Shown: one piece after another, positions 629 through 63,157 of the stretch | How positions within the stretch are numbered: the first letter of the stretch is position 1 | Layout: each line of letters begins with the position of its first letter | Made by a program: the position numbers and the translations under genes | Source of the DNA: Escherichia coli | GTDB taxonomy: Bacteria > Pseudomonadota > Gammaproteobacteria > Enterobacterales > Enterobacteriaceae | Reading direction: 5' to 3' (one strand) | DNA length: 64,000 nt | Assembly (NCBI RefSeq): GCF_030013205.1 | Contig: NZ_CP122648.1 | Notes under the pieces: generated by a model | What the model was told of the DNA's origin: nothing | What the model saw: only the letters and a program-made list of their open reading frames with translations | The model's database searches: none

Positions 629-1630
629 TTACTCTACTGGCTCTTTTTGTTCAGTGAATGCCATGTTAGCTATCGGGTTAAACCTCATGGCATCCGCCAG
701 ATAGTCGGGGGAAAAATGCGCATAAGTCATCGTTTGCTGGATAGTCGCATGTCCAAGAATCCGTTGTAATGTAACGATATTCCCACCGTTAATCATAAAG
801 TGTGTGGCAAATGTATGACGCATGACATGCGTAGCCTGCCCCTTCGGTAAATCCGGCTTCACCTCCTGAAGGATCTCCCGGAACTTCAGATAATCAACCT
901 GATACAACAACCCCGTCCGGCGGGTCTTAATCAGCGGCACGACCGAATCAGCCACAGGAACCGAACGGGATTTTCCGTTTTTGGTGTTAAAGAACGTCAC
1001 CCGGTTGCCAATGATGTGCTCTCCACGTAGTTCCGATGCTTCACTCCATCGGGCACCAGTAGAAAGACACAGAATGGCAACACGACGCGCATCACCCTCC
1101 AGTCGCTCAAGAAGCCGCTCAATCTCATCATCAGAAAGAAAGGCCATCTCTGTATTCTGAATTTTTAGCTTGCGTATACCGCGTACAGGGTTCGGGTTGT
1201 GAAAGACCTCAGCTTCAATCAGCACCGTGAACATGGTAGACAGAACGCACAAGTCACGATTAATGCTGGATGGCATTAAGCCGGCCTGTAATTTCTCTGA
1301 CCGATACTCAAGCATAAATTTTTGCGTCATCTGGCTGGCACGCGGATCTCCCATTTCACGAATCACTTTCTCCATCCGGATCCTGTAGGTATCACCGTAA
1401 GCCTGGTTACGGCCATCAAGCATCCACCATATATCAAGCAGCTCTGATAATCTCCGTCGATCAGCAGGTTTAGCCAGCCATGGGTTGTTATGGAAATTCT
1501 GTAAAATATGTTCTTTGAAGGCCTCCGCACTCCCTTTCCTGACAAAAATTTTACGTATCCGTTTGCCGTACGCCCCTTGGGGCCTGATATCGAGCAGCCA
1601 TCGCCCATCATCCATCTTTCTGATCGACAT
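629..1630 (-). CDS. int: tyrosine recombinase, P2-type phage integrase family
   Basis: 333 aa; N-terminus and C-terminal HxxR...Y catalytic region (HTFATHFMINGGNIVTLQRILGH...YAHF) resemble P2 Int; ATG and TAA verified on minus strand. Confidence 0.85.
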   Translation of the reverse strand: MSIRKMDDGRWLLDIRPQGAYGKRIRKIFVRKGSAEAFKEHILQNFHNNPWLAKPADRRRLSELLDIWWMLDGRNQAYGDTYRIRMEKVIREMGDPRASQMTQKFMLEYRSEKLQAGLMPSSINRDLCVLSTMFTVLIEAEVFHNPNPVRGIRKLKIQNTEMAFLSDDEIERLLERLEGDARRVAILCLSTGARWSEASELRGEHIIGNRVTFFNTKNGKSRSVPVADSVVPLIKTRRTGLLYQVDYLKFREILQEVKPDLPKGQATHVMRHTFATHFMINGGNIVTLQRILGHATIQQTMTYAHFSPDYLADAMRFNPIANMAFTEQKEPVE

Positions 1631-1632
1631 AC

Positions 1633-4302
1633 TTAAGCCCCCTCCTTGTTACTAAATATCCAGCATTTCAATACCTCCTTCTCTCTGGCCTCGGCTATTC
1701 CCCTCCCGGCGTTCGCCTGTCTGGATACCTCGCTACGGACGGGCTTGTATCCAATCAGCGATCGAGAACGGCCAGCCTTGAGAAGCTTTATCATTTCGGG
1801 ATTGGTTTGGGTCTTCACGTGGTGAACGGCGGCAACCTGCTCAAGTTGCGGGATACTGACGGCAAACTCATTCTGCCGTCCCTTGCCAAAATGATTTACG
1901 CCGTATGCTGTGATGCCGTCCAGATAGTCGAACGCCTCCCAGAACGCCATCACTTCCGGCAAGTCATCCATTACCGCTTTAGCCTGCTCCTCTGCCATTC
2001 GCTCCAGTTCCAGACATGTGGCATCAAGCCATTCATCCGGGATATCAATAACGCATTTCAGCGCCCTGACCAGTGCAATTAGTTGCGCGTGATTTTTGGC
2101 AATACGCTGATGGCGAATATTCTCGCAACCGTAAAGGCGGGTTGTTTCAGAATCCGAGAGTGCCATAAACAGATCCATAATCGCCCGCTCCTGGCTTACT
2201 GCCCGATGGATAAAACCTGATACCTGCTCAACGGGGTAAAGCTCCAGCCGTTTTGCTGCCAGTCGGCTATCTGGTGAGTGGCGTTTTTTATCGGTGTATA
2301 TACGTACCAGACGCTCGATAATTGCCGATGAGGCGTTTACCGTGGCATTCTGCGCAATCACGACAGCCCCTTTAAAAACGGGGTCATATGTGGCGTTATC
2401 ATTAGTTTTAACACCACGTACCCCAATACCACCGCCGTTATAGAGGCTTTTCAGGTTATCAAAGTCAAACGCACCTCTTTTTTGCGCATTGTCCCCCCGG
2501 TCTGCTTCAATCAGAACAACAGGTAATCCGGCGACCTGTCCAAAAGTTCGCTTCCAGCCTGATTCCGATCCTTTGGTTGGATCAACACCTTCATAGTTGT
2601 CACGGCCACACAAACGCCAACAAAAATCAATCAGCGTTGTTTTACCCGTTCCAGGCTCTCCGGTAATCTCAAGAAAAGGGTAAGACGTGTTTTTCTGCCT
2701 GATTTGTTCGCTGAACAACGAACCCAGCCAGAAGGCCAGGGTAATAATTCCCTTTTCACCAAAAGCCAGCCAGAGATCTTCCACCCAGGATATTGTGAAT
2801 TTATCCGGTTTTTTATAGTTAATCTGCAATATTGGTTTTTTATTCAATGGTTTTGCGTTTATGCCATCAATTTCAAAATAATCCTCTTCATTGATTTCGT
2901 AGGTTTTACCATTACAAACCGCGACATCATTAAACAGCCACGCGCCAATCTCTTTGTTGTATCCGATAAAATCCTGACCGATAACATTTTTTATTGCGGG
3001 AAGGTCATTTTTTATTAATGCATCAAGGTGCGCAGTCGTTCCGGTATAAATACCGCCTTTTGCCACATGCAACAGGCGTTTTTTAAATTCAGATGCGGAT
3101 GTTAATTGTCCTGATGTAAAGGTGTTTTTCACCGTCGCACCATCCGGGAACGTAACACGGAAGTAATACCATGCTTCATCCGTGTCATTGTTTCGAATGT
3201 AATAAAGCGGCGCCGGGTTACAGTTTGCGATTTCTTTTACAGCGCCGGATTCCTTAAGTGCAATTTTGCGCGCTTCATCTTCGTCAACATTTCGCTCATT
3301 TATGACGCGTTCAACAGCCTTCATATGGCGCTCAATATCCAGTTTGAACCAGAAAACACGGTTATCAAAAGTAAAATGAAATTCCTTTCGCTCACGAAAG
3401 GAAAACATTATCAGCGCCTTATCTCTCGGAGATTTTGCCAGCAATAAATCACCGTAATAACGGTATCTTTTCACATCATGGCCACGCAGCTTTCCGGCGA
3501 TGTGTAAATCATTCCAGTCGCGTTTATTGCTGTTTTTTCCTGGTAACGCCGCTGCCGTTCTCCAGCCGTCTTCGGCGCTGCGTTCTGCATGTTTTTTCGC
3601 ATAACGCTCACCCGCACGCCCGTTATCCAGCGCCCACACGATAACCGGACGGGGATTATCCCCGCACAGCTTCGCCAGCTCTTCCAGCGCCTTATCAGGG
3701 TAGTTTACGGCAGACATGACAGAAACGGCCGCAATGCCATTCTGGTTAAGGCTGATGGCATCAAAGATACCCTCACAAATCCAGATTTCTTTGGCCTTGC
3801 TTAAATCATCTCCCGGATAAGCCCACCACAACCCCTTGTAGCTGCCGGAAAAATTCGCCTTGCGCGCGAAGCGTTCCGGTCGGTCTATGATGCGCTCCCA
3901 CCACACGCCGTCAGCCAGTGTAAAACGCACAGTAGCGGCCTGTTCGCCGCTTTCCTTGTCCTGGTATCGCTCCTGAGTAAATGCTCCCTTCAGTGGCTCC
4001 ACAGCAATATTGCGTGCTTCCAGAAGATAAGCTGTCGCCGCTGCGTATGGATTGTCTTTCGTGCTGATATAGCGATCTGACCATGATGAAAACACATCCG
4101 GGTAAAGTTCTTTGGTCAACAGGTCTGTACCGCATTTATTTTCGCGCCCACAGTGCACGATGTACGGCCTTTCAAGGCTGGTAAAGAGCTCCTTCTTTCC
4201 ACATTGCGGACAAACACCATACCGGAGGTAGTTATTTTCTTCTTTGAAGTTGTAATCACGGATAAGACGGTTAATAATCTCTTTTCTGGTGTTATGTTTC
4301 AT
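1633..4302 (-). CDS. replicative primase-helicase (N-terminal zinc ribbon, TOPRIM-like primase core, C-terminal P-loop NTPase)
   Basis: 889 aa; CPQCG...HCGREN zinc motif, WICEGIFDAISL, Walker A GEPGTGKTT; stop lies 2 nt from integrase start. Confidence 0.8.
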   Translation of the reverse strand: MKHNTRKEIINRLIRDYNFKEENNYLRYGVCPQCGKKELFTSLERPYIVHCGRENKCGTDLLTKELYPDVFSSWSDRYISTKDNPYAAATAYLLEARNIAVEPLKGAFTQERYQDKESGEQAATVRFTLADGVWWERIIDRPERFARKANFSGSYKGLWWAYPGDDLSKAKEIWICEGIFDAISLNQNGIAAVSVMSAVNYPDKALEELAKLCGDNPRPVIVWALDNGRAGERYAKKHAERSAEDGWRTAAALPGKNSNKRDWNDLHIAGKLRGHDVKRYRYYGDLLLAKSPRDKALIMFSFRERKEFHFTFDNRVFWFKLDIERHMKAVERVINERNVDEDEARKIALKESGAVKEIANCNPAPLYYIRNNDTDEAWYYFRVTFPDGATVKNTFTSGQLTSASEFKKRLLHVAKGGIYTGTTAHLDALIKNDLPAIKNVIGQDFIGYNKEIGAWLFNDVAVCNGKTYEINEEDYFEIDGINAKPLNKKPILQINYKKPDKFTISWVEDLWLAFGEKGIITLAFWLGSLFSEQIRQKNTSYPFLEITGEPGTGKTTLIDFCWRLCGRDNYEGVDPTKGSESGWKRTFGQVAGLPVVLIEADRGDNAQKRGAFDFDNLKSLYNGGGIGVRGVKTNDNATYDPVFKGAVVIAQNATVNASSAIIERLVRIYTDKKRHSPDSRLAAKRLELYPVEQVSGFIHRAVSQERAIMDLFMALSDSETTRLYGCENIRHQRIAKNHAQLIALVRALKCVIDIPDEWLDATCLELERMAEEQAKAVMDDLPEVMAFWEAFDYLDGITAYGVNHFGKGRQNEFAVSIPQLEQVAAVHHVKTQTNPEMIKLLKAGRSRSLIGYKPVRSEVSRQANAGRGIAEAREKEVLKCWIFSNKEGA

Positions 4303-4310
4303 ATATAAAT

Positions 4311-4343
4311 CCCCCCCACTGCACCTTTTGCAGTGGGTTTTTT
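4311..4343 (+). terminator. hairpin CCCACTGCA-N4-TGCAGTGGG followed by T6 (plus-strand orientation)
   Basis: seen in sequence between 99-aa ORF stop and primase start; would block antisense read-through. Confidence 0.45.
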
Positions 4344-4348
4344 ATTAA

Positions 4349-4648
4349 TTACTCGTTGCTTATTGCTTTGGCAATCCCGGCGGTTTCGGCGCTATGCCAT
4401 GAAAAAATTCCGCCGGATGAATGCATACCAGATTTTATTGATTGTAATTCCCTATAAATAATGTTAGACAGAGATGCAATTTCTTCATTTATAATTTCTG
4501 CTGATGCTCCGCCATTTTTATCGTCAAAAACCACAGATATTAAACTGACGAGATTAATCACATCTGTGAGATCTTCCTTTGCACTTTCTGTAAAAAAGCC
4601 AACATATTCTCTATCTAAAAAATTTTCGCTATTCTGACGTTTAGACAT
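4349..4648 (-). CDS. hypothetical protein, 99 aa, AT-rich
   Basis: ORF track; low GC, no recognisable motif. Confidence 0.45.
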   Translation of the reverse strand: MSKRQNSENFLDREYVGFFTESAKEDLTDVINLVSLISVVFDDKNGGASAEIINEEIASLSNIIYRELQSIKSGMHSSGGIFSWHSAETAGIAKAISNE

Positions 4649-4715
4649 AAAAACTCCCCGACCCGTTAAGGCCGAAATATAAATTTAATTCAGTTATCAG
4701 TTGGTAATTCGGGAA

Positions 4716-4934
4716 TCAGGCGGAAAGCTGCGTCACCTTCAACGCCCTGAAATGTGTCATTCCCAGCTCTTCCAGCCCTTCGGCTGCGCGGCGTATGGCT
4801 TCGCCCGGTCCCGTTCCGTATACCGTTGCATGTGCATGTTTGGTTAACCCACGTTTATTAACGGCATAACCCAACACAAAGAAACGTTTTTCACCACTGC
4901 CATTATTTTTACGGGATGTTGAACGGGTTTTCAT
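4716..4934 (-). CDS. hypothetical small protein, 72 aa
   Basis: ORF track; start overlaps upstream stop (ATGA), suggesting translational coupling. Confidence 0.45.
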   Translation of the reverse strand: MKTRSTSRKNNGSGEKRFFVLGYAVNKRGLTKHAHATVYGTGPGEAIRRAAEGLEELGMTHFRALKVTQLSA

Positions 4935-5119
4935 TTCTTCACCTTTACCACTGATGCTGTGAGTTCTTCTTCTGGCAACTGATATTTCGGCGCAATTTCT
5001 TCCGTATACCTGATAGCGTCCCTTGCCGCTTTTCCTTTTGATTTATATTTATATGTGGTCCGGTAGTTTTCTTCCTCTCCTGTTACCACATTACGCAATT
5101 TAATATGAATCTCGTACAT
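4931..5119 (-). CDS. hypothetical small protein, about 62 aa (start at MYEIH)
   Basis: ORF track 4931..5149; internal ATG preceded by GGAGGGG and placed 2 nt after upstream stop. Confidence 0.4.
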   Translation of the reverse strand: MYEIHIKLRNVVTGEEENYRTTYKYKSKGKAARDAIRYTEEIAPKYQLPEEELTASVVKVKK

Positions 5120-5121
5120 CG

Positions 5122-5304
5122 TTACCCCTCCATGATTTTTACTGCGCATTTGTGGGTTAATCGCCCCTGTTCATTCGTGCGGCTGTACTCCATGCGGCTG
5201 GCAGCACGCAGGGCATCATCACAGGTCTGATATTCCCTGACATGAAAAAACTGACGAACGTCGCCGCTCTGGCAGTTAATCAGGGTGATAAGGAGCTTAA
5301 ACAT
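5122..5304 (-). CDS. hypothetical small protein, about 60 aa (MFKLLITLINCQ...)
   Basis: ORF track 5122..5382; ATG overlaps stop of upstream 57-aa ORF (ATGTTTAA). Confidence 0.4.
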   Translation of the reverse strand: MFKLLITLINCQSGDVRQFFHVREYQTCDDALRAASRMEYSRTNEQGRLTHKCAVKIMEG

Positions 5305-5470
5305 TGCACGCCTCCCGGATACGAATACGGGCAACAGAGACCAGACGGGATGCCGGAAGCAGGGCGCGCGCTTCGCGCTCACTGGCGGCGGTAACGGTAT
5401 GAAGGCGGATATTTTTACCGTGGCACTGCATAAAGCGCCAGATAAAATCAGGGCGTGTTGATATAGCCAT
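5297..5470 (-). CDS. hypothetical small protein, about 57 aa (MAISTRPDFIWRF...)
   Basis: C-terminal part of track ORF 5297..5824; ATG preceded by AAGGAG; upstream part of the track ORF judged noncoding. Confidence 0.4.
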   Translation of the reverse strand: MAISTRPDFIWRFMQCHGKNIRLHTVTAASEREARALLPASRLVSVARIRIREACNV

Positions 5471-5594
5471 TTTGGCGGCTCCTTTGTCTAATTTACGGAG
5501 TCTCGCCAGCACGCTGCTAAACATGGTGGCGGGACGTAACAGGGTTAGCAGACTGGTGACAAAGAAACCAGCAGGCCTTACGGCCTCCCCATTA

Positions 5595-5718
5595 CGCCCC
5601 GCCATAATACGGGAAAGGGTGGTATTACGGGCACAAAAAAACCGCATTACGGAAATATAGCGGCTACCCGCTTTGTCAATCAGGCTGCTAAACCCGGCAC
5701 CCGCTTTATGAGGTGCGG
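5595..5718 (-). ncRNA. conserved three-block noncoding element, copy A (hairpin, then T7-terminated block, then ATTATGGCGGGGCG on minus strand); candidate sRNA or leader attenuator
   Basis: blocks CGCCCCGCCATAAT, GCACAAAAAAACCGC and CAGGCTGC.AAACCCGGCACCCG.TT..TGAGGTGC recur in same order and similar spacing at 59946-60075. Confidence 0.4.
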
Positions 5719-5865
5719 GCAAACGATACGCCATGACAAAAAAGCGAGTCAAGCAATATTGCAAATTATTTTTGCGTGATTGCGCTGAGTAATTGATTTT
5801 TAAGAGTAAAAAAGCCATAATCATTTCTGCCTATTATTTCTTATTGTTGGTTTCAGGTGCACTAA

Positions 5866-5925
5866 ATGCACATCCTTGACTGGTTGGCTCGCTAGCTTTA
5901 GCGAGCTTCTTTTTTGCTCTGCAGC
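5866..5925 (+). terminator. two stem-loops (GTGCA-CTAAA-TGCAC; GCTCGCTAGCTTTAGCGAGC) followed by TTCTTTTTT; intrinsic terminator or sRNA 3' end
   Basis: seen in sequence; no convincing ORF on plus strand upstream. Confidence 0.45.
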
Positions 5926-6377
5926 CAGTACCCGGCCTCCTTCCCTCACATGTAGTCATGTGCTCATTCCAGTCAGGTGGATAATGCTGTATTACCGGAC
6001 ATCCGGTTATGATGTTTAAAGCGTTTGTTTGTTTATGCCACGTGGAGAATATACCCACGCCGCCATTACTTGTATTTATCATAACAGTTCATCCAATTCG
6101 GTTAATGTAACCGGAATAACTCAATTTCATACACTGTAAATAAATGCTGATTTTAAACTTAGCTCCTTGGAATATATTTCTTACGTGTGACGTACAGGTG
6201 AAAATATCCCTCTGATAGTCCATTTTCTTTTATTGGGTCACATCTTTTTACTCCGGTTCCCTTAACAAGGGTAGAGCATCTTTTAAACCATGAATGCATC
6301 TTTGGTTAAGTGATGTTTCTTATTGAATGAAATGTTTAGGCGCATATCGCGCCATGCTGACTATAAAGTGAAAATAA

Positions 6378-6599
6378 TTAAGCCTGAAAACGTTGTTGTT
6401 TTCTTTCTTCTATCCAGTCGATAATTTCCTCTTCAACCCATGCAACCGCACGAGGGCCTATTTTTATTGGTTTGGGGAATATATCCGATTTTATATCTTC
6501 GTAAATTCGAGCTCTCGATCTCCCTGTGATTTCAATGACTCTGGGGAGTCTTATTAATTTTTGAATCCGCCTTTCGCTGGTCTGTGAGTATGCTGACAT
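6378..6599 (-). CDS. alpA: AlpA-family transcriptional regulator / excisionase-like (prophage CP4-57 AlpA type)
   Basis: 73 aa; helix-turn-helix region ...RLPRVIEITGRSRARIYEDIKSDIFPKPIKIGPRAVAWVEEEIIDWI... typical of AlpA. Confidence 0.8.
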   Translation of the reverse strand: MSAYSQTSERRIQKLIRLPRVIEITGRSRARIYEDIKSDIFPKPIKIGPRAVAWVEEEIIDWIEERKQQRFQA

Positions 6600-7117
6600 A
6601 TTGGCCTCCTGTATATGCTGAACACTTTACGTTAGCTCACAGTGGGAGCATGTAAGATCTCGCGGTCGTCTGCGGGACGAGAAAAATCATAAACAACGAA
6701 AAGCGGATTTGTAAATCAGGTCGATTTTTAGACGGGGTTGACATGGACAGTTAGATTTGTTCCATGCGTGAAATATACATTTAGAGCCACTTTAAACCAC
6801 CAGAAAGCGACAAAGAATAACAAGTTAGTGCCAGAAAGGTTTGCTGACTTACCCTTTTAGGCACCAGAAAAGCCCTTTCAGGTCGGTGTAATGCTTGTGA
6901 ACGCTGAAATAGTGGATTCTGAAAACAAAAAAAGAGTTGAAAATGTGATGTGCATCAAAAAATAATATCGATAAAACAGTTTGATTTTTATTTTCTTATC
7001 AAAAGCACTGGTTGATTATGGGAAATGCATTATAAATCAAATGGATATATCTATTTTTTTAGGTTAAAAATCACCAGGTGCTTTTAGTGAGGTCTTATTC
7101 TATTGATTTTAAAAGAT

Positions 7118-7198: not shown

Positions 7199-8461
7199 TC
7201 AGTTTGTTTCGTTAGCCCATTTAAAATCATAGGGGGCAATATATGCCGTCTTGCAGGTGTCGAGATAATCAGCCCACCATTGCAACATTCGGCGGCGTTC
7301 CTGCATATGTTCAGCTCTGTGAACGTATGCAGCCCGGACACTGCCTCTTTCCCTGTGACTCATCTGAAGCTCAACGGCTTCTCTTGTCCACCTGCCTGAC
7401 TCTGTCAGCGCCGAACAGGCCATGGCCCTGAATCCGTGACCACAAATATCTTTTTTGGTGTCGTATCCCATGTGGCGTAATGCCTTGTTAATGGTGTTTT
7501 CGCTCATCGGTTTTATCTGGTAATGGTCGCCGGGGAAAATAAACACTTCATCACCGGATATATTTCTTATATCGTCAAGAAGCTGCATGGCCTGAGTGGG
7601 TAAAGGGATGGCGTGAGGGGTCCCCATTTTCGTTCCACGATATGAATATTTTACGCCTTCTATTTTTTCGCGTTCTGCTGGTATTACCCACATTGATTTA
7701 TCAAAATCAATTTCATTCCAACGAGCAAAGCGCAATTCACTTGAGCGAATAAAAATTAATAAATTTAATTTTAGTGCAAATTGCGTTAATAACCGTCCAT
7801 TCATCTTATGGTGGTAATCATTTATTTTGCCAAGTAATTCAGGTAATCGCTCAAGGGGAAGAGCGGGGCGATGTTTGGTTTTATTGGTTTCTATTGCACC
7901 GTTCAGTTCCTGTGCTGGATTGTATTTAATCATTCCATTCTGTACAGCGTAGCGCATAATGGCGTTCATTCGCTGCTTGTTACGAGATGCTGTCTCAAGC
8001 ACTCCTTTATCTTCCATTTTGCGTAAAGGAATCAGTAGATCCATGGTTGTGATCTCGTTAATTGGTCTTTTACCAAGAATGGGGAAGATGTGGTTTTCCA
8101 GGTCTTTTAAGACTTTTTGTGCGTGCAATTCGCTCCAGCCTTTTTTCCGGCTGTGCCACTCTCTGGCAACGTCTTCAAAAAGCACTATTTGAGGTTTTGG
8201 AGTGTGCAGTGGGTCAATGCCTTTAGCCAGGCTCGCCAGATATTCATCACGAGCGTTCCTTGCCTGTGCAAGTGTTACGGCAGGATAAATGCCTAAAGCT
8301 CGGGTCGTTTCTTTACCGTTGATAACCTTGCGAAAGCGCCAGTATTTTGAGCCGTTGGGGTGAACATAGAGATACAGCCCTTTCCCGTCACGAAGTTTTT
8401 TAATTTTGTTGTTGTCCTTATCTGGTTTGGCGTTACGTACAGCTACATCAGTCAGTTTCAT
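7199..8461 (-). CDS. int: P4-type (tRNA-associated) tyrosine integrase
   Basis: track ORF 7199..8503 is labelled '+', but the reverse complement from 8503 reads TTG GTT CGA ... ATG AAA CTG ACT and plus strand at 7199-7201 is the stop; likely ATG start at 8461 (MKLTDVAVRNAKPD...). Confidence 0.9.
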   Translation of the reverse strand: MKLTDVAVRNAKPDKDNNKIKKLRDGKGLYLYVHPNGSKYWRFRKVINGKETTRALGIYPAVTLAQARNARDEYLASLAKGIDPLHTPKPQIVLFEDVAREWHSRKKGWSELHAQKVLKDLENHIFPILGKRPINEITTMDLLIPLRKMEDKGVLETASRNKQRMNAIMRYAVQNGMIKYNPAQELNGAIETNKTKHRPALPLERLPELLGKINDYHHKMNGRLLTQFALKLNLLIFIRSSELRFARWNEIDFDKSMWVIPAEREKIEGVKYSYRGTKMGTPHAIPLPTQAMQLLDDIRNISGDEVFIFPGDHYQIKPMSENTINKALRHMGYDTKKDICGHGFRAMACSALTESGRWTREAVELQMSHRERGSVRAAYVHRAEHMQERRRMLQWWADYLDTCKTAYIAPYDFKWANETN

Positions 8462-8639
8462 TATGTTGCTCCTCCAGACGGGTACAAATAAAAATCGAAC
8501 CAAGCATACCCGTTTTTATACCCATTTTAATATGGGCTTCAGGCAAATTTAACGAGAGATAACGAGACAATGGAAGAGGTTTAACTCATTGAAAATCAAT
8601 GGGTAATGGTTTTTTCTGAGAGATTGCGAGAAGTTGCGA

Positions 8640-8714
8640 TGGTGTCCCCTGCAGGAATCGAACCTGCAATTAGCCCTTAGGAGGGGCTCGTTATATCCAT
8701 TTAACTAAGAGGAC
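8640..8714 (-). tRNA. argW: tRNA-Arg (anticodon CCU)
   Basis: reverse complement reads GTCCTCTTAGTTAAATGGATATAACGAGCCCCTCCTAAGGGCTAATTGCAGGTTCGATTCCTGCAGGGGACACCA with T-arm GGTTCGATTCC and CCA end. Confidence 0.9.
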
Positions 8715-56272: not shown

Positions 56273-56383
56273 GCTTACGGGATTCTGAAATCCCGTTTTT
56301 GCCTGTTTTATGCGCGCTTCATATATCGCGGCGCGTTTTTTGCTCATTTACGGGATTTGTGAATCCCGTTTCTGTCTGTTTTT
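56273..56383. repeat. two about 37-bp direct repeats, each a hairpin followed by a T-run (ACGGGATTCTGAAATCCCGT TTTTGCCTGTTTT; ACGGGATTTGTGAATCCCGT TTCTGTCTGTTTTTT)
   Basis: seen in sequence upstream of parM-like gene, second copy inside 3' end of A. Confidence 0.5.
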
Positions 56384-59141
56384 TGTTTCCACTGGTCAGG
56401 CCTCCCCGCAGCAGGTCTGCTTTGCGGCGGGCGCGTTCAGTGGTTTCACTGATTCTCTGTGCGTGCTCTGCGTCGCGGATGGCGCGCAGCATGTCAGAAA
56501 GCACGGTAACGGGTGTTTTCATGGTGTTCTGGTCCTGCTGAAGTGTGGATGCCAGGCGTGCGGCGGCTTCGGGGTCTGATGCCCCCAGCTGTTCCAGATA
56601 GCTGGCGACCGGGTTATGGCGGATCTCCGTGCTGCTTACGCCGTGGTTACGGCTCAGGCGCTGCCAGAGCTGCGTGATCCGGCTGTCCGGTCGGGTATCC
56701 GGTTTGCGTACAATTTCAAATCCCTGCGGTGCAATGATGCTGCCGTCGACGTACAGACTGCCGCCCCGTAACAGGTGCTGCATCTGCTGTTCACCGATAT
56801 GCAGGCCGAGAGATTCAGCAGACTCCCGCCATTCTTTAGCGAGTAACTCGTGGTTATCAGGCAAAGGCCGTGGCTGTTTGCGGCTCTGTGTCCAGTTCTG
56901 CATTTCATCACTGCTGTTTTTTGCCTGTTTGTCACGCAGCGAACGCATCAGCGCCCGGCGTTCGTGCCGTTTCAGTGAGCGCATCCATTCATTCACGTCA
57001 ACGCCGTCAGGAAGCTGCGGCCACGGTGCTGGCCGTTCTTCCGGCTGTTCTGTCCCGTTGTTGTCCGTTTCCTGTACACGGGGACAGTTATTGCCACGAG
57101 TCCAAGGGGCGGCAGGGCCGCCCTGAAGGTCAAAACCATTTTCGCGGGCGCTGTCTTCCGCTTCCGGTTTACGTCTTACCAGCTTCCAGTTATCCGGATG
57201 TGTGCACACACGGGAAGACTCCCCGATGAGCGGTGACCAGATCCCGTAAATCTGTACGCTCTGTTCGCCGTAATCGTTCAGCTCATCTGCGAGGTCGTAG
57301 GCGGTGCGAATCAGGTAGTCTTTGCGTGGAACAAGTACGCCGCCCTGTTTTTCAATGTAGGAGGCAAAACACCCGGCATCAGCGGCAGCGAGCACTGCAT
57401 CCATTGCGTCATCCTTCAGTCGTTGCGGGCCTTCCGGGTTGCGTGCCATCTGGCTGGCAAGGCGGCGCAGTTCACGCCACACCTGACGGGAGGGGATGCC
57501 AAAGAACTGGAACTGGCGGACCCGGTGAAGGCGCGCCCAGCCGATGGCGCGCTCCACGCTCTCGGCCATTGATTTTCCGGTTTCGTGGTCAACGCGTGGC
57601 TTGCCCGTTTTCGGGTCGATACCATCCACGGCGCGGCTGTCCAGGTTCTTTCCGATGTAGGTGGCGATGTAGCTGGTTGGCGTGCCTTTTGAGCCGTCGA
57701 CGTACTCCGCCTTAAAACGCGGAGTTATGTCATCGCCCAGCTCGTGGCGGTCTTCCTGAATGGCAATATCGCAGACGTGGGACACGATGGTTTCAATCTC
57801 GTCCGGATGTGCAAAGACCATCATATGCCAGTGCACAGTGCCGTCATGGTGAGGCTCCACCGTGCGGATGCCATACCAGCGAAGACCGTCGCGGTTCAGT
57901 TTTTTGCGGACCGCCGCAAAAAACGTGTTAACCAGGTAATCGCTGGAGTCGCGCATGGTGGCCCCGTTCCATTTGGGATTCGGATGACCGTTCTCTGTTG
58001 TGGCGTGGTATTTTGACGGGCAGGTGACAGTCAGAAACACCGCTCTGTCGCCACGGGCTTCGGCCAGAAGTTCCAGTCCCTTCATGGTGGCCATCATTTC
58101 TGCCTTACGGTGAACCGGGTTACTTACTCCCGCGTAATACACCGTCTCGAGATCAATCGTGAACCCGTCTTCATTTTCCAGCATGAAACTTTTCAGGAAA
58201 TCGCGTGTTTTCTCGCGCTGTGCGCGAAACTCGCTTAACGCGTCCTGGCTCAGATAGGGTGATGTTTTTCTGGAAACCAGACAGGCGGCGCGGAGTTGTT
58301 CTTCTCTCCACTCGCAACGTAACAGCCACAGTTTGCGTTTCCACCATTCCGCACAGGTCAGGCGAAGGATTGCGCCCGGCAGCAGCTCCGTGTCCGGTTC
58401 GTTCCTCCGGTCTTTGTCTGTTGTCAGTGCGTCATAATGTGGAGGCATGGCGTGCAGGTGTAACGCCATGCGGGCCAGCATCTGATACGCCTTCAGCGTT
58501 ACATCCATGGTCAGTTCGCCATCAGTAGCGCCAAAGCCATCGCAGAGTTTTTCGAAGGTGCTGCTGAACATCGCCGCCGTCATGGTGGCCAGCGTCTGTA
58601 TCTGGTGTTTGTTGAGCTGCGGCAGGTAAAGCAAATCGTCCAGGCGTTCGCGTCCGGCAAGGGAGCGATAACCCGGTGTCAGCCAGCGGTGATCGGTGCG
58701 GTCCAGACGTTCGAATATTTTGCGCAGGGTTCCGCGCGCGTAGCGTTCCGCCTGCCAGCTCTTTTTGCCTTTCTGACGATCGGCTTCCTGCTTCTTGCGC
58801 AGGAAGGAGAGGTGGCGAATAAGCGGATCGCGCAGATAGGACGGCAGCAGGCGCAGCGAGGCCATGGCTTCATCCACCGCGCCGCGTGCCTGTTTTCTGG
58901 CGTCTCCTGCCAGTGTGATGGTTTTGTCCTGTTTTTCCTGTGCGTCCAGGCTTTTATTAATCAGGTTGCCCAGCGGCGTGGCGGAGAACGCCGCATCAGC
59001 CATTTCCTGGCGGCGCTCGTTCTCTACCCGGTAGGCATCCAGCCAGGAGGAAAGCGCGGATTCAGGAGCGGAGATCCCCGTTCCTTCACGCCCCACTGCG
59101 TGGCGCGGTTGTTGCCAGTCCCTGATGTACTCTGCCGTCAT
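56319..59141 (-). CDS. A: P2 gpA-like replication initiation endonuclease, extended (940 aa)
   Basis: rolling-circle Rep motifs and tyrosine region; about 180 aa longer than remembered P2 A. Confidence 0.85.
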   Translation of the reverse strand: MTAEYIRDWQQPRHAVGREGTGISAPESALSSWLDAYRVENERRQEMADAAFSATPLGNLINKSLDAQEKQDKTITLAGDARKQARGAVDEAMASLRLLPSYLRDPLIRHLSFLRKKQEADRQKGKKSWQAERYARGTLRKIFERLDRTDHRWLTPGYRSLAGRERLDDLLYLPQLNKHQIQTLATMTAAMFSSTFEKLCDGFGATDGELTMDVTLKAYQMLARMALHLHAMPPHYDALTTDKDRRNEPDTELLPGAILRLTCAEWWKRKLWLLRCEWREEQLRAACLVSRKTSPYLSQDALSEFRAQREKTRDFLKSFMLENEDGFTIDLETVYYAGVSNPVHRKAEMMATMKGLELLAEARGDRAVFLTVTCPSKYHATTENGHPNPKWNGATMRDSSDYLVNTFFAAVRKKLNRDGLRWYGIRTVEPHHDGTVHWHMMVFAHPDEIETIVSHVCDIAIQEDRHELGDDITPRFKAEYVDGSKGTPTSYIATYIGKNLDSRAVDGIDPKTGKPRVDHETGKSMAESVERAIGWARLHRVRQFQFFGIPSRQVWRELRRLASQMARNPEGPQRLKDDAMDAVLAAADAGCFASYIEKQGGVLVPRKDYLIRTAYDLADELNDYGEQSVQIYGIWSPLIGESSRVCTHPDNWKLVRRKPEAEDSARENGFDLQGGPAAPWTRGNNCPRVQETDNNGTEQPEERPAPWPQLPDGVDVNEWMRSLKRHERRALMRSLRDKQAKNSSDEMQNWTQSRKQPRPLPDNHELLAKEWRESAESLGLHIGEQQMQHLLRGGSLYVDGSIIAPQGFEIVRKPDTRPDSRITQLWQRLSRNHGVSSTEIRHNPVASYLEQLGASDPEAAARLASTLQQDQNTMKTPVTVLSDMLRAIRDAEHAQRISETTERARRKADLLRGGLTSGNKKQTETGFTNPVNEQKTRRDI

Positions 59142-59585: not shown

Positions 59586-59816
59586 TTAATGGAGTTTGTT
59601 TTGCTGCTGGATGAGCTGTTGAAGCTCGTGCAGATCATCCGCCAGATAGCTGAAAACAGAGGCGGAATAAATGTTTGATAGTGCGTGGCTGCGCTCATGC
59701 AACATATTGATGTGCATGATTTGCGCGACGCGTGATGCGCGGGAAAGTCTGCGGTTGATTTCAGTCTGGATGTGACGACGCTCCGCGATAGCGCGGTGTG
59801 GTTTGCGGTTTGCCAT
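59586..59816 (-). CDS. hypothetical early-operon protein, 76 aa
   Basis: ORF track. Confidence 0.45.
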   Translation of the reverse strand: MANRKPHRAIAERRHIQTEINRRLSRASRVAQIMHINMLHERSHALSNIYSASVFSYLADDLHELQQLIQQQNKLH

Positions 59817-59945
59817 GGTGTGGCCCCTTGTGTAGTAAGTTGTGAAAACTCACCATCCAGAGCTGCGAAACTGTGGGTGGCGAGACGTACGAGGTTCGCA
59901 GTACCGGCTACACAAGAACCCGGCCCGACCGAAGTCGGCCCCGTA

Positions 59946-60075
59946 CGCCCCGCCATAATTCTGACGCGAAAAAAACGTGGCAATACAGTACGCACAAAAA
60001 AACCGCTGGCGCGGTTGTGCGCTTGTGTAGTCAGCAGGCTGCGAAACCCGGCACCCGTTTTGTGAGGTGCAGCGG
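59946..60075 (-). ncRNA. conserved three-block noncoding element, copy B (candidate sRNA/attenuator; minus-strand hairpin plus ACCGC-GCCA-GCGGT-T7 terminator)
   Basis: same three blocks as 5595-5718 in same order; track ORF 59510..60127 judged a spurious translation. Confidence 0.4.
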
Positions 60076-62435: not shown

Positions 62436-62723
62436 CTAAAGTCCCAGCCACAACAACCATGCGTCGCGGCGTTCTTTCGGTTGCTCAAAAAACGCTTTGC
62501 GCATGCCTTCGTTAAATGCTGGCAGATATACCCAGTTTTCTGATGCACGCGTCTTTACTGAACCTGGTTTCACAAAGTCAATTGTTGGTAGCTTTGCTGC
62601 GTCAATCATGGTTCTGACTGTGGATTCCTTGCGGCCGATCATCTTGGCGAATAGTTGATATGGCACCGCTTCAAGTGGATATGGTGCTACCTGAATGAAC
62701 CCCCCAAGCTCTGATTCGCTCAT
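62436..62723 (-). CDS. cox: P2 Cox-like excisionase / early-operon repressor
   Basis: ...PYQLFAKMIGRKESTVRTMIDAAKLPTIDF...WVYLPAFNEG...RRDAWLLWLGL matches remembered P2 Cox. Confidence 0.85.
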   Translation of the reverse strand: MSESELGGFIQVAPYPLEAVPYQLFAKMIGRKESTVRTMIDAAKLPTIDFVKPGSVKTRASENWVYLPAFNEGMRKAFFEQPKERRDAWLLWLGL

Positions 62724-62836
62724 TGTGGTAATCTCCCTAATTCGTTCGAATGGCTCAAAATGGCTTATATCGGCTTATTTGAGTGTTTTTATGTTTGTGC
62801 CCGATGTGGCATGTTGTGATGGAGGATATGCCCGAT
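62724..62836. promoter_or_regulatory. divergent Pe/Pc-like switch region with three GGCT repeats at 10-bp spacing (62752-62780), candidate C-repressor operators
   Basis: seen in sequence between divergent cox and C. Confidence 0.5.
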
Positions 62837-63157
62837 ATGGCATCTTTGTCAAGCATGGGTGAAAAATTTCGCCTGATTCGTGAAGCAGAAGGTATGACCC
62901 GCCAGGAGTTTGCGGATTGTGTTGGGCTGCCTTATGGGACGGTAACTAACTATGAGGTGAGGGGGAAGCAAGTAACAGAGGGTGCCTTACTTAAGGTTAC
63001 GAAACACCCTAAATTTAAGAAGTATGCTTATTGGTTATCAACAGATGAAACGATGCCGGAGGTCGGGCAAATTTCTCCGGCTCTCTCTCTTGATGGTTCC
63101 TGCAATTCGGAGGGAGATCGCGTTTCAACCGAAACAATCCAAAAATTATCCCGCTGA
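62837..63157 (+). CDS. C: P2 C-like immunity repressor (start uncertain; track ORF begins 62783)
   Basis: HTH region ...MTRQEFADCVGLPYGTVTNYE...KYAYWL...GQISPAL matches remembered P2 C; GGAGG 11 nt upstream of ATG 62837. Confidence 0.8.
   Translation: MASLSSMGEKFRLIREAEGMTRQEFADCVGLPYGTVTNYEVRGKQVTEGALLKVTKHPKFKKYAYWLSTDETMPEVGQISPALSLDGSCNSEGDRVSTETIQKLSR

Follow-up and report, generated by a model that had tools for sequence, protein, structure and literature searches.

Four very short open reading frames (ORFs) follow one another at positions 4716–5470 of a 64,000-nt stretch of Escherichia coli DNA (contig NZ_CP122648.1 of assembly GCF_030013205.1; the whole stretch is referred to below as the window), upstream of a gene for a primase. 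Are they genes, and if so, what controls them and what might their products do? We conclude that the four ORFs are genuine, tightly coupled genes under purifying selection, and that they very probably constitute the promoter-proximal coding part of an antisense-RNA-controlled early (replication) operon in a P4-like satellite island at tRNA-Arg(CCU). Coordinates are those of the window, and features lie on its minus strand, unless stated otherwise; loci used for comparison carry L numbers.

Frame-specific selection on four overlapping ORFs

The first translated gene, ORF1 (57 amino acids (aa), isoelectric point (pI) 11.5; 5297..5470), has a Shine-Dalgarno sequence (SD), AAGGAG, 8 nt before its ATG at 5470. 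ORF2 (60 aa, pI 8.6; 5122..5304; SD GGGAGG) overlaps ORF1 by 8 nt (ATGTTTAA). The ATG of ORF3 (62 aa, pI 9.2, lysine-rich; 4931..5119; SD GGAGGGG) lies 2 nt past the ORF2 stop, and ORF4 (72 aa, pI 10.7; 4716..4934; SD AAGGTGA) shares a 4-nt ATGA overlap with ORF3. The SDs of ORF2, ORF3 and ORF4 each lie inside the 3′ end of the preceding ORF. This layout is exactly that of the original prediction, which had reported four minus-strand ORFs of 57–72 aa chained by ATGA/ATGTTTAA overlaps or a 2-nt gap, with internal SDs; its span, from the ORF4 stop to the ORF1 start, was exact as well. On the copy of the locus in E. coli K_EC180 (L001; 100% identical over window positions 4300–6650), the RefSeq Prokaryotic Genome Annotation Pipeline (PGAP) calls the same four genes, but with ORF1 extended to a 175-aa ‘Icd-like’ coding sequence (CDS). 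For ORF3 a longer, 72-aa version from an ATG at 5149 also exists, but the SD, the PGAP call and the lengths of homologues all favoured the 62-aa version, and the longer one was rejected.

Could the frames be open by chance alone, or be artefacts of annotating a non-coding leader? Such chains do arise occasionally by chance (4 of 2000 dinucleotide-preserving shuffles, counting ORFs of ≥50 aa with junctions from −11 to +15 nt and without requiring an SD), and the region just upstream is truly an RNA gene covered by a mistaken CDS annotation (see below). The alignment of seven E. coli loci with 85–100% DNA identity argues against this explanation. All four frames were open across the seven loci, except in the frameshifted L003, and the junctions were kept. 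The ratio of nonsynonymous to synonymous polymorphism (pN/pS) in the called frames was 0.16 for ORF1, 0.45 for ORF2, 0.43 for ORF3 and 0.29 for ORF4, whereas it was 0.7–6.6 in the two other frames, and the insertions or deletions in ORF2 (+6 nt) and ORF3 (+3 nt) preserved the frame. Moreover, an SD precedes every start, homologues down to 35% identity occur in conserved synteny, and the predicted folds of the products are confident. Consistently, the distant island L017 has ORF2-like, ORF3-like and ORF4-like genes in the same order, with junctions of −8, −8 and −4 nt. The chance-ORF explanation is thus effectively refuted. Frame conservation in homologous islands had been named in advance as the test of whether these are genuine coupled genes of a satellite-type island upstream of a primase; because the frames are conserved in the related islands, that claim stands, borne out by the frame-specific pN/pS, the in-frame insertions or deletions and the synteny.

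In L003 (E. coli ETEC1734, NZ_CP122801, 3825..4532), an 11-nt duplication (CCTGCATCCCG) within icd, at about window position 5356, causes a frameshift by which the Icd-like ORF and ORF2 are fused; PGAP calls a single 708-bp CDS there. Decayed variants are also present in the databases: P0009 is an ORF2–ORF3 fusion, and P0034, P0035 and P0054 are truncated forms of ORF4.

ORF1 encodes an Icd-like protein preceded by a C4-type antisense RNA

None of the four ORFs had been thought to carry a recognisable motif, which proved wrong for ORF1. Residues 9–50 of its product matched the NCBIfam model NF033153 (phage_ICD_like) at 46.6 bits (cut-off 25), and by tblastn it was 48.9% identical to Icd of phage P1. 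When ORF1 and its four downstream neighbours (ORF2–5; ORF5 is described below) were compared by tblastn with 50,697 phage records, only ORF1 matched, to P1 Icd, and none matched P4. On sequence grounds ORF1 is a homologue of P1 Icd and of P4 Kil, and it would be the direct target of the RNA switch described next. The curated P1 record gives inhibition of host cell division as the function of Icd, and for P4 Kil a function of this kind, inhibiting division or killing the host, is likewise known (PMC10111431).

A σ70-like promoter site (TTGACT-18-TATCGT; 5723..5752), found by a consensus scan with 9 of 12 matches and a predicted start at ~5716, is placed at the 5′ end of an isrK/seqA-like leader RNA (5635..5716; Rfam RF01394, 52.1 bits, gathering threshold 50); by position the site would be the analogue of P4 PLE and of P1 P1c4/P2c4. 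The leader ends in a hairpin plus U-run. Within it lie two short elements, a1 (UUAGCAG; 5691..5685) and b1 (UGACAAAG; 5678..5671), which may serve as upstream decoy targets for the RNA that follows, a C4/CI-type antisense immunity RNA (5522..5609). The latter matched Rfam RF01695 over its full length (1–87) at 79.7 bits (gathering threshold 45), compensatory changes between loci were seen in its first hairpin, and the folding of the leader gave z = −3.8. Its b′ element (UUUCUUUGUCA; 5567..5557) occupies a hairpin loop and its a′ element (CUGCUAA) lies at 5551..5545. A downstream target region (5479..5520) between C4 and ORF1 comprises a2 (UUAGCAG; 5520..5514) and b2 (GACAAAGGAG; 5488..5479). 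The b2 site includes the ORF1 SD (AAGGAG, 5484..5479), and the b2 helix takes in its GGAG, 8 nt before the ATG. The order a1, b1, c4, a2, b2, icd agrees with that of the annotated P1 record. Within ORF1, a stretch with more C than G (5460–5380) is compatible with a Rho site, though as a weak hint.

The pairing between C4 and its putative targets was examined across related islands, eight in all (the window and L002–L008), of which seven were aligned for formal pair counts. Between C4 and a2/b2, 100% of 119 cells were paired and 7 pairs were changed on both sides (7 sequences); in controls in which the 3′ partners were slid, 32–53% of the cells were paired and at most one pair was changed on both sides. 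Similarly, 99% of 105 cells were paired between C4 and a1/b1, with 8 pairs changed on both sides, against 24–48% of cells in the slid controls. Two a-types and five b-types occur among the eight islands, and in every island the type is the same at all three sites. Because the C4 loops and their targets covary and the slid controls do not, there is strong comparative evidence for a functional antisense interaction, predicted to mask the ORF1 ribosome-binding site (RBS). The heteroimmunity of P1 and P7 is of the same kind, with specificity loops and targets covarying between variants as they do among the islands here.

ORF1 is nested in frame within the longer open frame that PGAP calls (5824..5297, 175 aa), and this CDS covers the promoter-like site and both the isrK and C4 RNAs. 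The pN/pS of 0.16 in the 57-aa core compares with 1.06 in the upstream 118 codons, which are yet open in all seven loci. With this lack of constraint, and with the extension overlying the two RNAs, the 175-aa ‘Icd-like’ CDS was rejected as a constrained protein.

Icd-like domains occur in tandem elsewhere. Two adjacent CDSs carry them in L008 (3977..4640), one of them upstream of the isrK/C4 region, and two Icd-like repeats lie within one ORF in L010 (3199..3969). In the P4 record (L018, 8168..8584), the Phage_ASH match (residues 22–85 of the ‘cI ORF’) overlaps the CI/C4 RNA gene; for this reason, much of what Phage_ASH models may be an RNA gene that is translated, or a frame like that of Eta, in which translation matters and the protein sequence does not.

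ORF2–4 belong to rare families of small basic proteins

All four products are basic (pI 8.6–11.5). ORF2–4 had no match above cut-off in Pfam, NCBIfam, PHROGs or PADLOC, whose defence-system models gave no match at all, none to NF033153, and none in the PDB by sequence; by tblastn, ORF2–5 had no match in P4. Weak matches of ORF2–5 to CSD, CotG and CATSPERG were rejected as noise, and a weak PDB match to a designed repeat protein was dismissed. The homologues form 9, 13 and 14 protein clusters at 90% identity for ORF2, ORF3 and ORF4, respectively. E. coli is the source of nearly all of them, with one ORF4 homologue coming from Yersinia enterocolitica, and all those named at source are ‘hypothetical’. 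An exhaustive HMMER search of 1.84 billion representatives with a concatenated ORF2+3+4 profile returned 29 proteins, none of them named; cluster representatives numbered about 10 for ORF2 and about 8 for ORF3. The most distant homologues (35–50% identity) retain length, invariant residues and position, and the best conserved core among the three is that of ORF4 (KRFFVLGYAVNKRGLT...TVY). The context of five distant homologues was examined, and every one of these genes has a C4/Icd module on one side and a replicase (Toprim primase, gpA or DUF927) on the other.

Profile comparison aligned the ORF2 and ORF3 families in register over 62 columns (hhalign probability 96%, E = 3.8e-9), showing that the two are paralogues, which arose by tandem duplication. 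ORF4 showed no significant hhalign similarity to ORF2 or ORF3. The Icd family compared with ORF2, ORF3 and ORF4 gave P = 0.57, 0.045 and 0.013 at probabilities of ≤3.4%, which are not significant; in the comparison with ORF4 (P = 0.013) the β2–α segment is in register. Epsilon, the protein encoded in P4 where ORF2–4 lie here (see below), had no sequence or profile similarity to ORF2 or ORF4. AlphaFold2 predicted for ORF4 a disordered basic N-terminal tail followed by a ββαβ domain (predicted local distance difference test (pLDDT) 85.5, core 96). The same topology was predicted for ORF1 (pLDDT about 70), ORF2 (79–89) and ORF3 (about 80), in one artificial model in which these three were joined by linkers. 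The fold is small and generic, its best structure matches being ribosomal protein eL20 and unrelated proteins.

Comparison with P1, P4 and Gifsy-1

The immI region of P1 and P7 and the window are alike in having a1, b1, C4, a2 and b2 followed by an Icd-family first ORF whose RBS abuts b2, and in the overlap of the next gene with the icd stop codon, which in the curated P1 record is an ATGA shared with ant1. A note in that record describes icd as ‘apparently required for expression of ant’. The payloads differ: in P1 it is the Ant antirepressor, in the window three unrelated mini-proteins, ORF5 and the primase. P1 is a plasmid prophage, whereas the window element is a satellite island. Unlike P1, the island is without C1-operator-type control and has an isrK-type terminator hairpin in its leader, between a1/b1 and C4.

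Rfam finds both isrK and C4 in the P4 record itself. The ‘cI ORF’ of P4 spans C4; residues 85–132 are Icd-like (73.9 bits) and the N-terminal part corresponds to Pfam Phage_ASH. Downstream of it, epsilon and then orf151 each overlap the preceding gene by 8 nt, and cnr and alpha come after a gap of 135 nt, the left operon reading PLE – seqA – CI RNA – seqC – kil/eta – epsilon – orf151 – cnr – alpha. P4 and the window thus share int, an AlpA/Vis-like gene, an immunity RNA and a primase, with an Icd-like end, overlapping small genes, a gap and one more small gene between the last two. They also share a long open frame across the RNA gene in which a shorter gene is nested, like eta/kil (PMC10111431). 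ORF2–4 are placed as epsilon and orf151 are in P4, and ORF5 is placed as cnr, yet no homologues of epsilon (PF25738), orf151 or cnr (DUF5375) were found in the island, these slots being taken by ORF2–4 and ORF5. The window primase (889 aa; Toprim_2, weak DUF5906) is a different family member from P4 alpha, and a second Int_N recombinase follows it, unlike in P4. A further difference is that relatives of the window element have a P2-type capsid gene and an ogr/delta-like gene at the places of sid and psu, which were not themselves searched for.

In the literature, IsrK has been equated with P4 seqA and C4 with the CI RNA, and CI-dependent premature termination has been described (PMC3632133, PMC4825925). 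In P4, Eta contains the nested Kil, and translation keeps transcription from terminating (PMC10111431). The isrK – orf45 (STnc1160) – anrP region of Gifsy-1 resembles the window in its IsrK leader with terminator and its downstream AUGA-coupled gene (PMC4825925); orf45–anrP translational coupling via AUGA was shown there experimentally, the coupled product is the antirepressor AnrP, and IsrK activates translation in trans (PMC4825925). Gifsy-1 also has a processed C4-like RNA inside a poorly conserved ORF (PMC4825925), and in both elements the DNA of the RNA region is conserved and the protein is not (pN/pS 1.06 in the window). Unlike Gifsy-1, the window has an Icd-like first product, a four-gene chain and replication genes, and is known here from sequence alone. 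Finding C4 and isrK in satellites by means of Rfam models is itself already in the literature (PMC10111431, PMC3632133).

ORF5 and the hairpins upstream of the primase

Between ORF4 and the primase lies ORF5 (99 aa, acidic, pI 4.7; 4349..4648; pN/pS 0.48), immediately ahead of the replicase, a place taken by cnr in P4. It had no Pfam, NCBIfam, PHROG or PADLOC match, and its identification with P4 Cnr (ORF106, DUF5375) was rejected (hhalign P = 0.31, no Pfam match). Family homologues are found in L013 (120 aa), L014 (90 aa) and L016 (94 aa) with the motif G(M/L)H..GGIF(S/T), in L016 together with epsilon. The 67-nt gap between ORF4 and ORF5 contains a terminator-like hairpin plus U-run (4656..4677), found by a pattern scan and kept in the seven-locus alignment, the 3′ arm of which holds the ORF5 SD (GGGGAG). 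This hairpin is possibly an attenuator or a mask of the ORF5 RBS, which would split the operon into ORF1–4 and ORF5–primase. A second, GC-rich hairpin (4315..4337, not assigned to a strand), with an A-run before it and a weak U-tract after it, was found by the scan just upstream of the primase start; equivalent pre-replicase hairpins are seen in L010 (~4905–4935), L014 (~5830–5855), L016 (~4805–4830) and L017 (~5800–5830), which with the window makes five island types. Read on the opposite strand, the pre-replicase GC hairpin resembles a strong intrinsic terminator.

The island and its other genes

The island is inserted at tRNA-Arg(CCU) (8640..8714; called by ARAGORN, Rfam tRNA 63.4 bits), which also bounds it on the right, with yfdC and mlaA following; its leftward part runs off the window. 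All its listed genes are on the minus strand, in the order integrase, AlpA, the region studied here, ORF5, primase and second tyrosine recombinase. The integrase (7199..8503; Pfam Arm-DNA-bind_3, Phage_int_M, Phage_integrase) lies beside the attachment tRNA and is followed by an AlpA-family regulator/excisionase (6378..6599; Pfam Phage_AlpA, 5.5e-17). The primase/helicase (889 aa; 1633..4302) matched Pfam Toprim_2 (6.4e-13), weakly DUF5906, and PHROG 1139 ‘DNA primase’ (1005 bits); PF03288, the Pfam model used for P4 alpha, is not among its Pfam matches. It is the distal product of the operon that begins upstream of ORF1.

For comparison with P4-like satellites, the core set of SatelliteFinder (int, alpA, epsilon/Ash, alpha, psu, sid, delta) was used. 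The island has an integrase and an AlpA-type regulator by a tRNA site, and a primase/helicase downstream of the immunity region; Pfam gave no match to epsilon (PF25738) or Phage_ASH (PF10554) in any ORF of the region, the 175-aa frame included. The flank of the K_EC180 copy carries a gene for a ‘P2 family major capsid protein’ as well as an ogr/delta-like one, and no psu or sid is annotated there, neither having been searched for. The satellite module containing the four-ORF chain was found in 72 of 5,426 complete E. coli genomes.

The second tyrosine recombinase (333 aa, Int_N plus Phage_integrase by Pfam; 629..1630) begins 2 nt past the primase stop. A replicase followed by a second recombinase is also found in L002–L007, L013 (7773..8804), L014 (8404..9381) and L017 (8548..9534), whether the replicase is a Toprim primase, gpA or DUF927, and in the window and L017 the spacing to the replicase stop is 2–4 nt. 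Multimer resolution or a second integration specificity would be examples of its role. At the same position in K_EC180 (L001, 1632..2331), where the window has a single 333-aa ORF, the PGAP annotation shows two overlapping CDSs, a ‘phage integrase’ of 627 bp, which is shorter, and an ogr/Delta-like zinc-finger protein; the difference may lie in the sequence or in the annotation alone. The ‘P2 family phage major capsid protein’ gene of the relatives (L001, 1..472; L002, 5616..6668; L007, 4331..5383) varies in place: in L002 and L007 it comes between the AlpA/helix-turn-helix (HTH) gene and the immunity region, and in L001 it lies beyond the primase side. Its presence is unusual, since classical P4 carries sid and psu but lacks a capsid gene.

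The same regulatory frame holds different cassettes

How general is this arrangement? Junctions were compared in nine elements (the window, P4, P1, L008, L010, L013, L014, L016 and L017), and a tenth, a prophage module in the window, was checked for C4 only. A C4 RNA was present upstream of the chain in 10 of 10. In the nine, an Icd-type ORF was always followed by ORFs with −11, −8 or −4 nt overlaps or gaps of ≤13 nt and G-rich SDs. In the satellite islands and P4, 67–135 nt then usually separate the chain from one last small ORF, and a GC hairpin precedes the replicase. The replicase varies by element (Toprim primase, gpA or DUF927), and so does the cassette content. Because genes like ORF2 and ORF4 turn up beside more than one kind of replicase, whether or not an epsilon homologue is present, the small ORFs behave as cassettes shuffled within a fixed regulatory frame.

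The prophage module (59873..60070), with a second isrK (64.1 bits) and C4 (83.2 bits), lies within a P2-like prophage of the same window (55–64 kb), whose genes include Cox, a C-like HTH protein, gpA (940 aa) and ParM (features noted at 59586..59816, 56319..59141 and 62436..62723 on the minus strand and, for the putative C repressor, at 62783..63157 on the plus strand). Its first ORF after C4 encodes an epsilon-family ‘Derepression’ protein (PF25738, 32.5 bits), and the SD of that ORF, AAGGGG, abuts a b2-like site. Its C4 a′ (CUGCGAA) and b′ (UUCUUGUGUAG) are both unlike those of the satellite, and the two elements should therefore be heteroimmune. This prophage is a plausible helper for the satellite.

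Discussion

The chain of four genes stands as originally described, but not as a self-contained four-gene operon: the unit begins upstream, with the promoter-like site, the leader and C4, and continues through ORF5 and the primase. How might such a unit be switched? The direction of regulation, the coupling, the polarity and the mode of relief are modelled here on P1, P4 and Gifsy-1, as would be any biochemical role of ORF2–4. A constitutive-type promoter near 5750 would produce a leader carrying a1/b1, the C4 RNA and a2/b2, and the mature C4 RNA is predicted, by analogy with its family, to be processed from this transcript of the operon itself. In the quiescent island, C4 a′ and b′ would pair with a2/b2 and block ribosome entry at ORF1. 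Since they start inside the preceding gene or within 2 nt of its stop, ORF2–4 would receive few ribosomes unless ORF1 were translated, having no independent access beyond their internal SDs. The untranslated RNA would then be exposed to premature (Rho-type) termination, leaving the chain, ORF5 and the primase off; by analogy, C4 pairing would thus both block translation and cause premature termination of downstream genes. Relief might come from an excess of a1/b1 decoy RNA, or from read-through (transcription and translation of the long frame) from an upstream helper-activated promoter, as with P4 Eta. ORF1 would then be translated, ribosomes would relay through ORF2–4, and transcription would reach the primase. 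Premature termination of untranslated RNA has been demonstrated experimentally for P1 icd-ant and for P4, and the regulatory principle was established for both decades ago.

Several observations weigh against this account. The isrK match is barely over its gathering threshold, and the c4-a1b1 family (RF03163) scored 29 bits, under its own. Coupling and Rho polarity at the locus are carried over from P1 and P4. The pN/pS of 0.43–0.45 in ORF2 and ORF3 indicates moderate constraint only, and frameshifted or truncated variants are known (L003, P0009, P0034, P0035, P0054). In L010 and L016, genes like ORF2 and ORF4 are found alongside a true epsilon homologue, so they are not simple epsilon replacements. 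Translation from 5824, Eta-like as in P4, would alter how the switch is read, and it is possible because the 175-aa frame is persistently open. Finally, the hairpins after ORF4 and before the primase could make ORF1–4 a separate transcription unit.

What ORF2–4 do within an operon of this kind allows several explanations. By position, a role as regulators or interference factors, as the original prediction had suggested, is plausible, and no homology in NCBIfam, Pfam, PHROG, PADLOC or the epsilon hhalign comparison supports it. A more specific form would make them helper-directed antirepressors (epsilon analogues) or other helper-takeover factors, the ORF2/ORF3 pair widening the range of helper repressors. 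The gene coupled to the C4/CI/IsrK-regulated first ORF is ant in P1, epsilon in P4 and anrP in Gifsy-1 (PMC4825925), the P2-like prophage has an epsilon-family gene in the corresponding place, and no epsilon homologue was detected in the island; in addition, the homologues are not tied to a single replicase type, so the target is more likely host or helper. However, this argument is positional only, since the proteins lack sequence or profile similarity to epsilon or any Ant/Bro family, and the coexistence with epsilon in L010 and L016 speaks against it; we take it as a possibility without thinking it probable. That all three are instead further Icd/Kil-type host inhibitors (of cell division, RNA polymerase or similar), distant paralogues of ORF1 arising by serial tandem duplication, would fit the similar size and ββαβ topology predicted for all four, the demonstrable ORF2/ORF3 duplication, the tandem Icd-like domains or genes in L010 and L008 and the in-register β2–α alignment of Icd with ORF4 (P = 0.013). 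Against it stand the non-significant hhalign results, both for Icd with ORF2, ORF3 and ORF4 and for ORF4 with ORF2 and ORF3, the generic nature of a fold whose best matches are eL20 and unrelated proteins, and the artificial concatenated model from which the ORF1–3 topologies come. We consider this unlikely.

One may also ask whether the sequences of ORF2–4 matter much at all, or whether these are mainly a ribosome relay, translated spacers shielding the transcript from Rho. The moderate pN/pS of ORF2 and ORF3, the tiny families (29 representatives among 1.84 billion proteins), the existence of frameshifted and fused variants, and slot contents that differ between islands while the junction design (−8, −4, SD) is constant would all be in keeping with this. 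The upstream extension of ORF1, open with a pN/pS of about 1, is therefore a precedent at this very locus for translation without sequence constraint. Nevertheless, homologues at 35–50% identity preserve invariant residues and lengths, the folds are confident (pLDDT up to 96), the order ORF2–3–4 is kept in the distant L017, and ORF4 has a pN/pS of 0.29; a mere relay is quite improbable in our estimation. Our best guess is that ORF2–4 are early effectors that would act at take-over by binding proteins of the host or the helper, since the gene in this position codes for an antirepressor in P1, P4 (epsilon) and Gifsy-1 (AnrP). A broader possibility, which we hold to be doubtful, is that ORF2–4, and possibly Icd, form one fast-evolving ββαβ superfamily, tandem-duplicated and shuffled as 8-nt-junction cassettes behind C4. 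They would then make up a previously unrecognised class of early effectors of satellites, in which each member acts against its own protein of the host or helper (helper repressors, RNA polymerase and the division machinery are examples) and which would replace epsilon in islands that lack it.

The locus is a new instance of a known design, not a new type of system, and its ORF1 already had a name from PGAP. The additions are modest: three mini-protein families, rare and uncharacterised, a duplicated pair among them, a shared predicted fold, and covarying immunity types. As to annotation, two RNA genes lie inside what RefSeq gives as the CDS of the Icd-like gene; the Phage_ASH match in the P4 ‘cI ORF’ overlaps the CI/C4 RNA, so that at least there the Pfam model covers a translated RNA gene. 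The matched variation of C4 loops and targets provides a ready catalogue of the immunity specificities of E. coli satellites, with a further type in the co-resident P2-like prophage. Being compact, predicted to be well folded, satellite-specific and presumably expressed at take-over, ORF2–4 are reasonable candidates for new helper- or host-directed inhibitors. Four ‘hypothetical’ genes can thus be read as part of an RNA-gated switch that would decide whether a phage satellite replicates.

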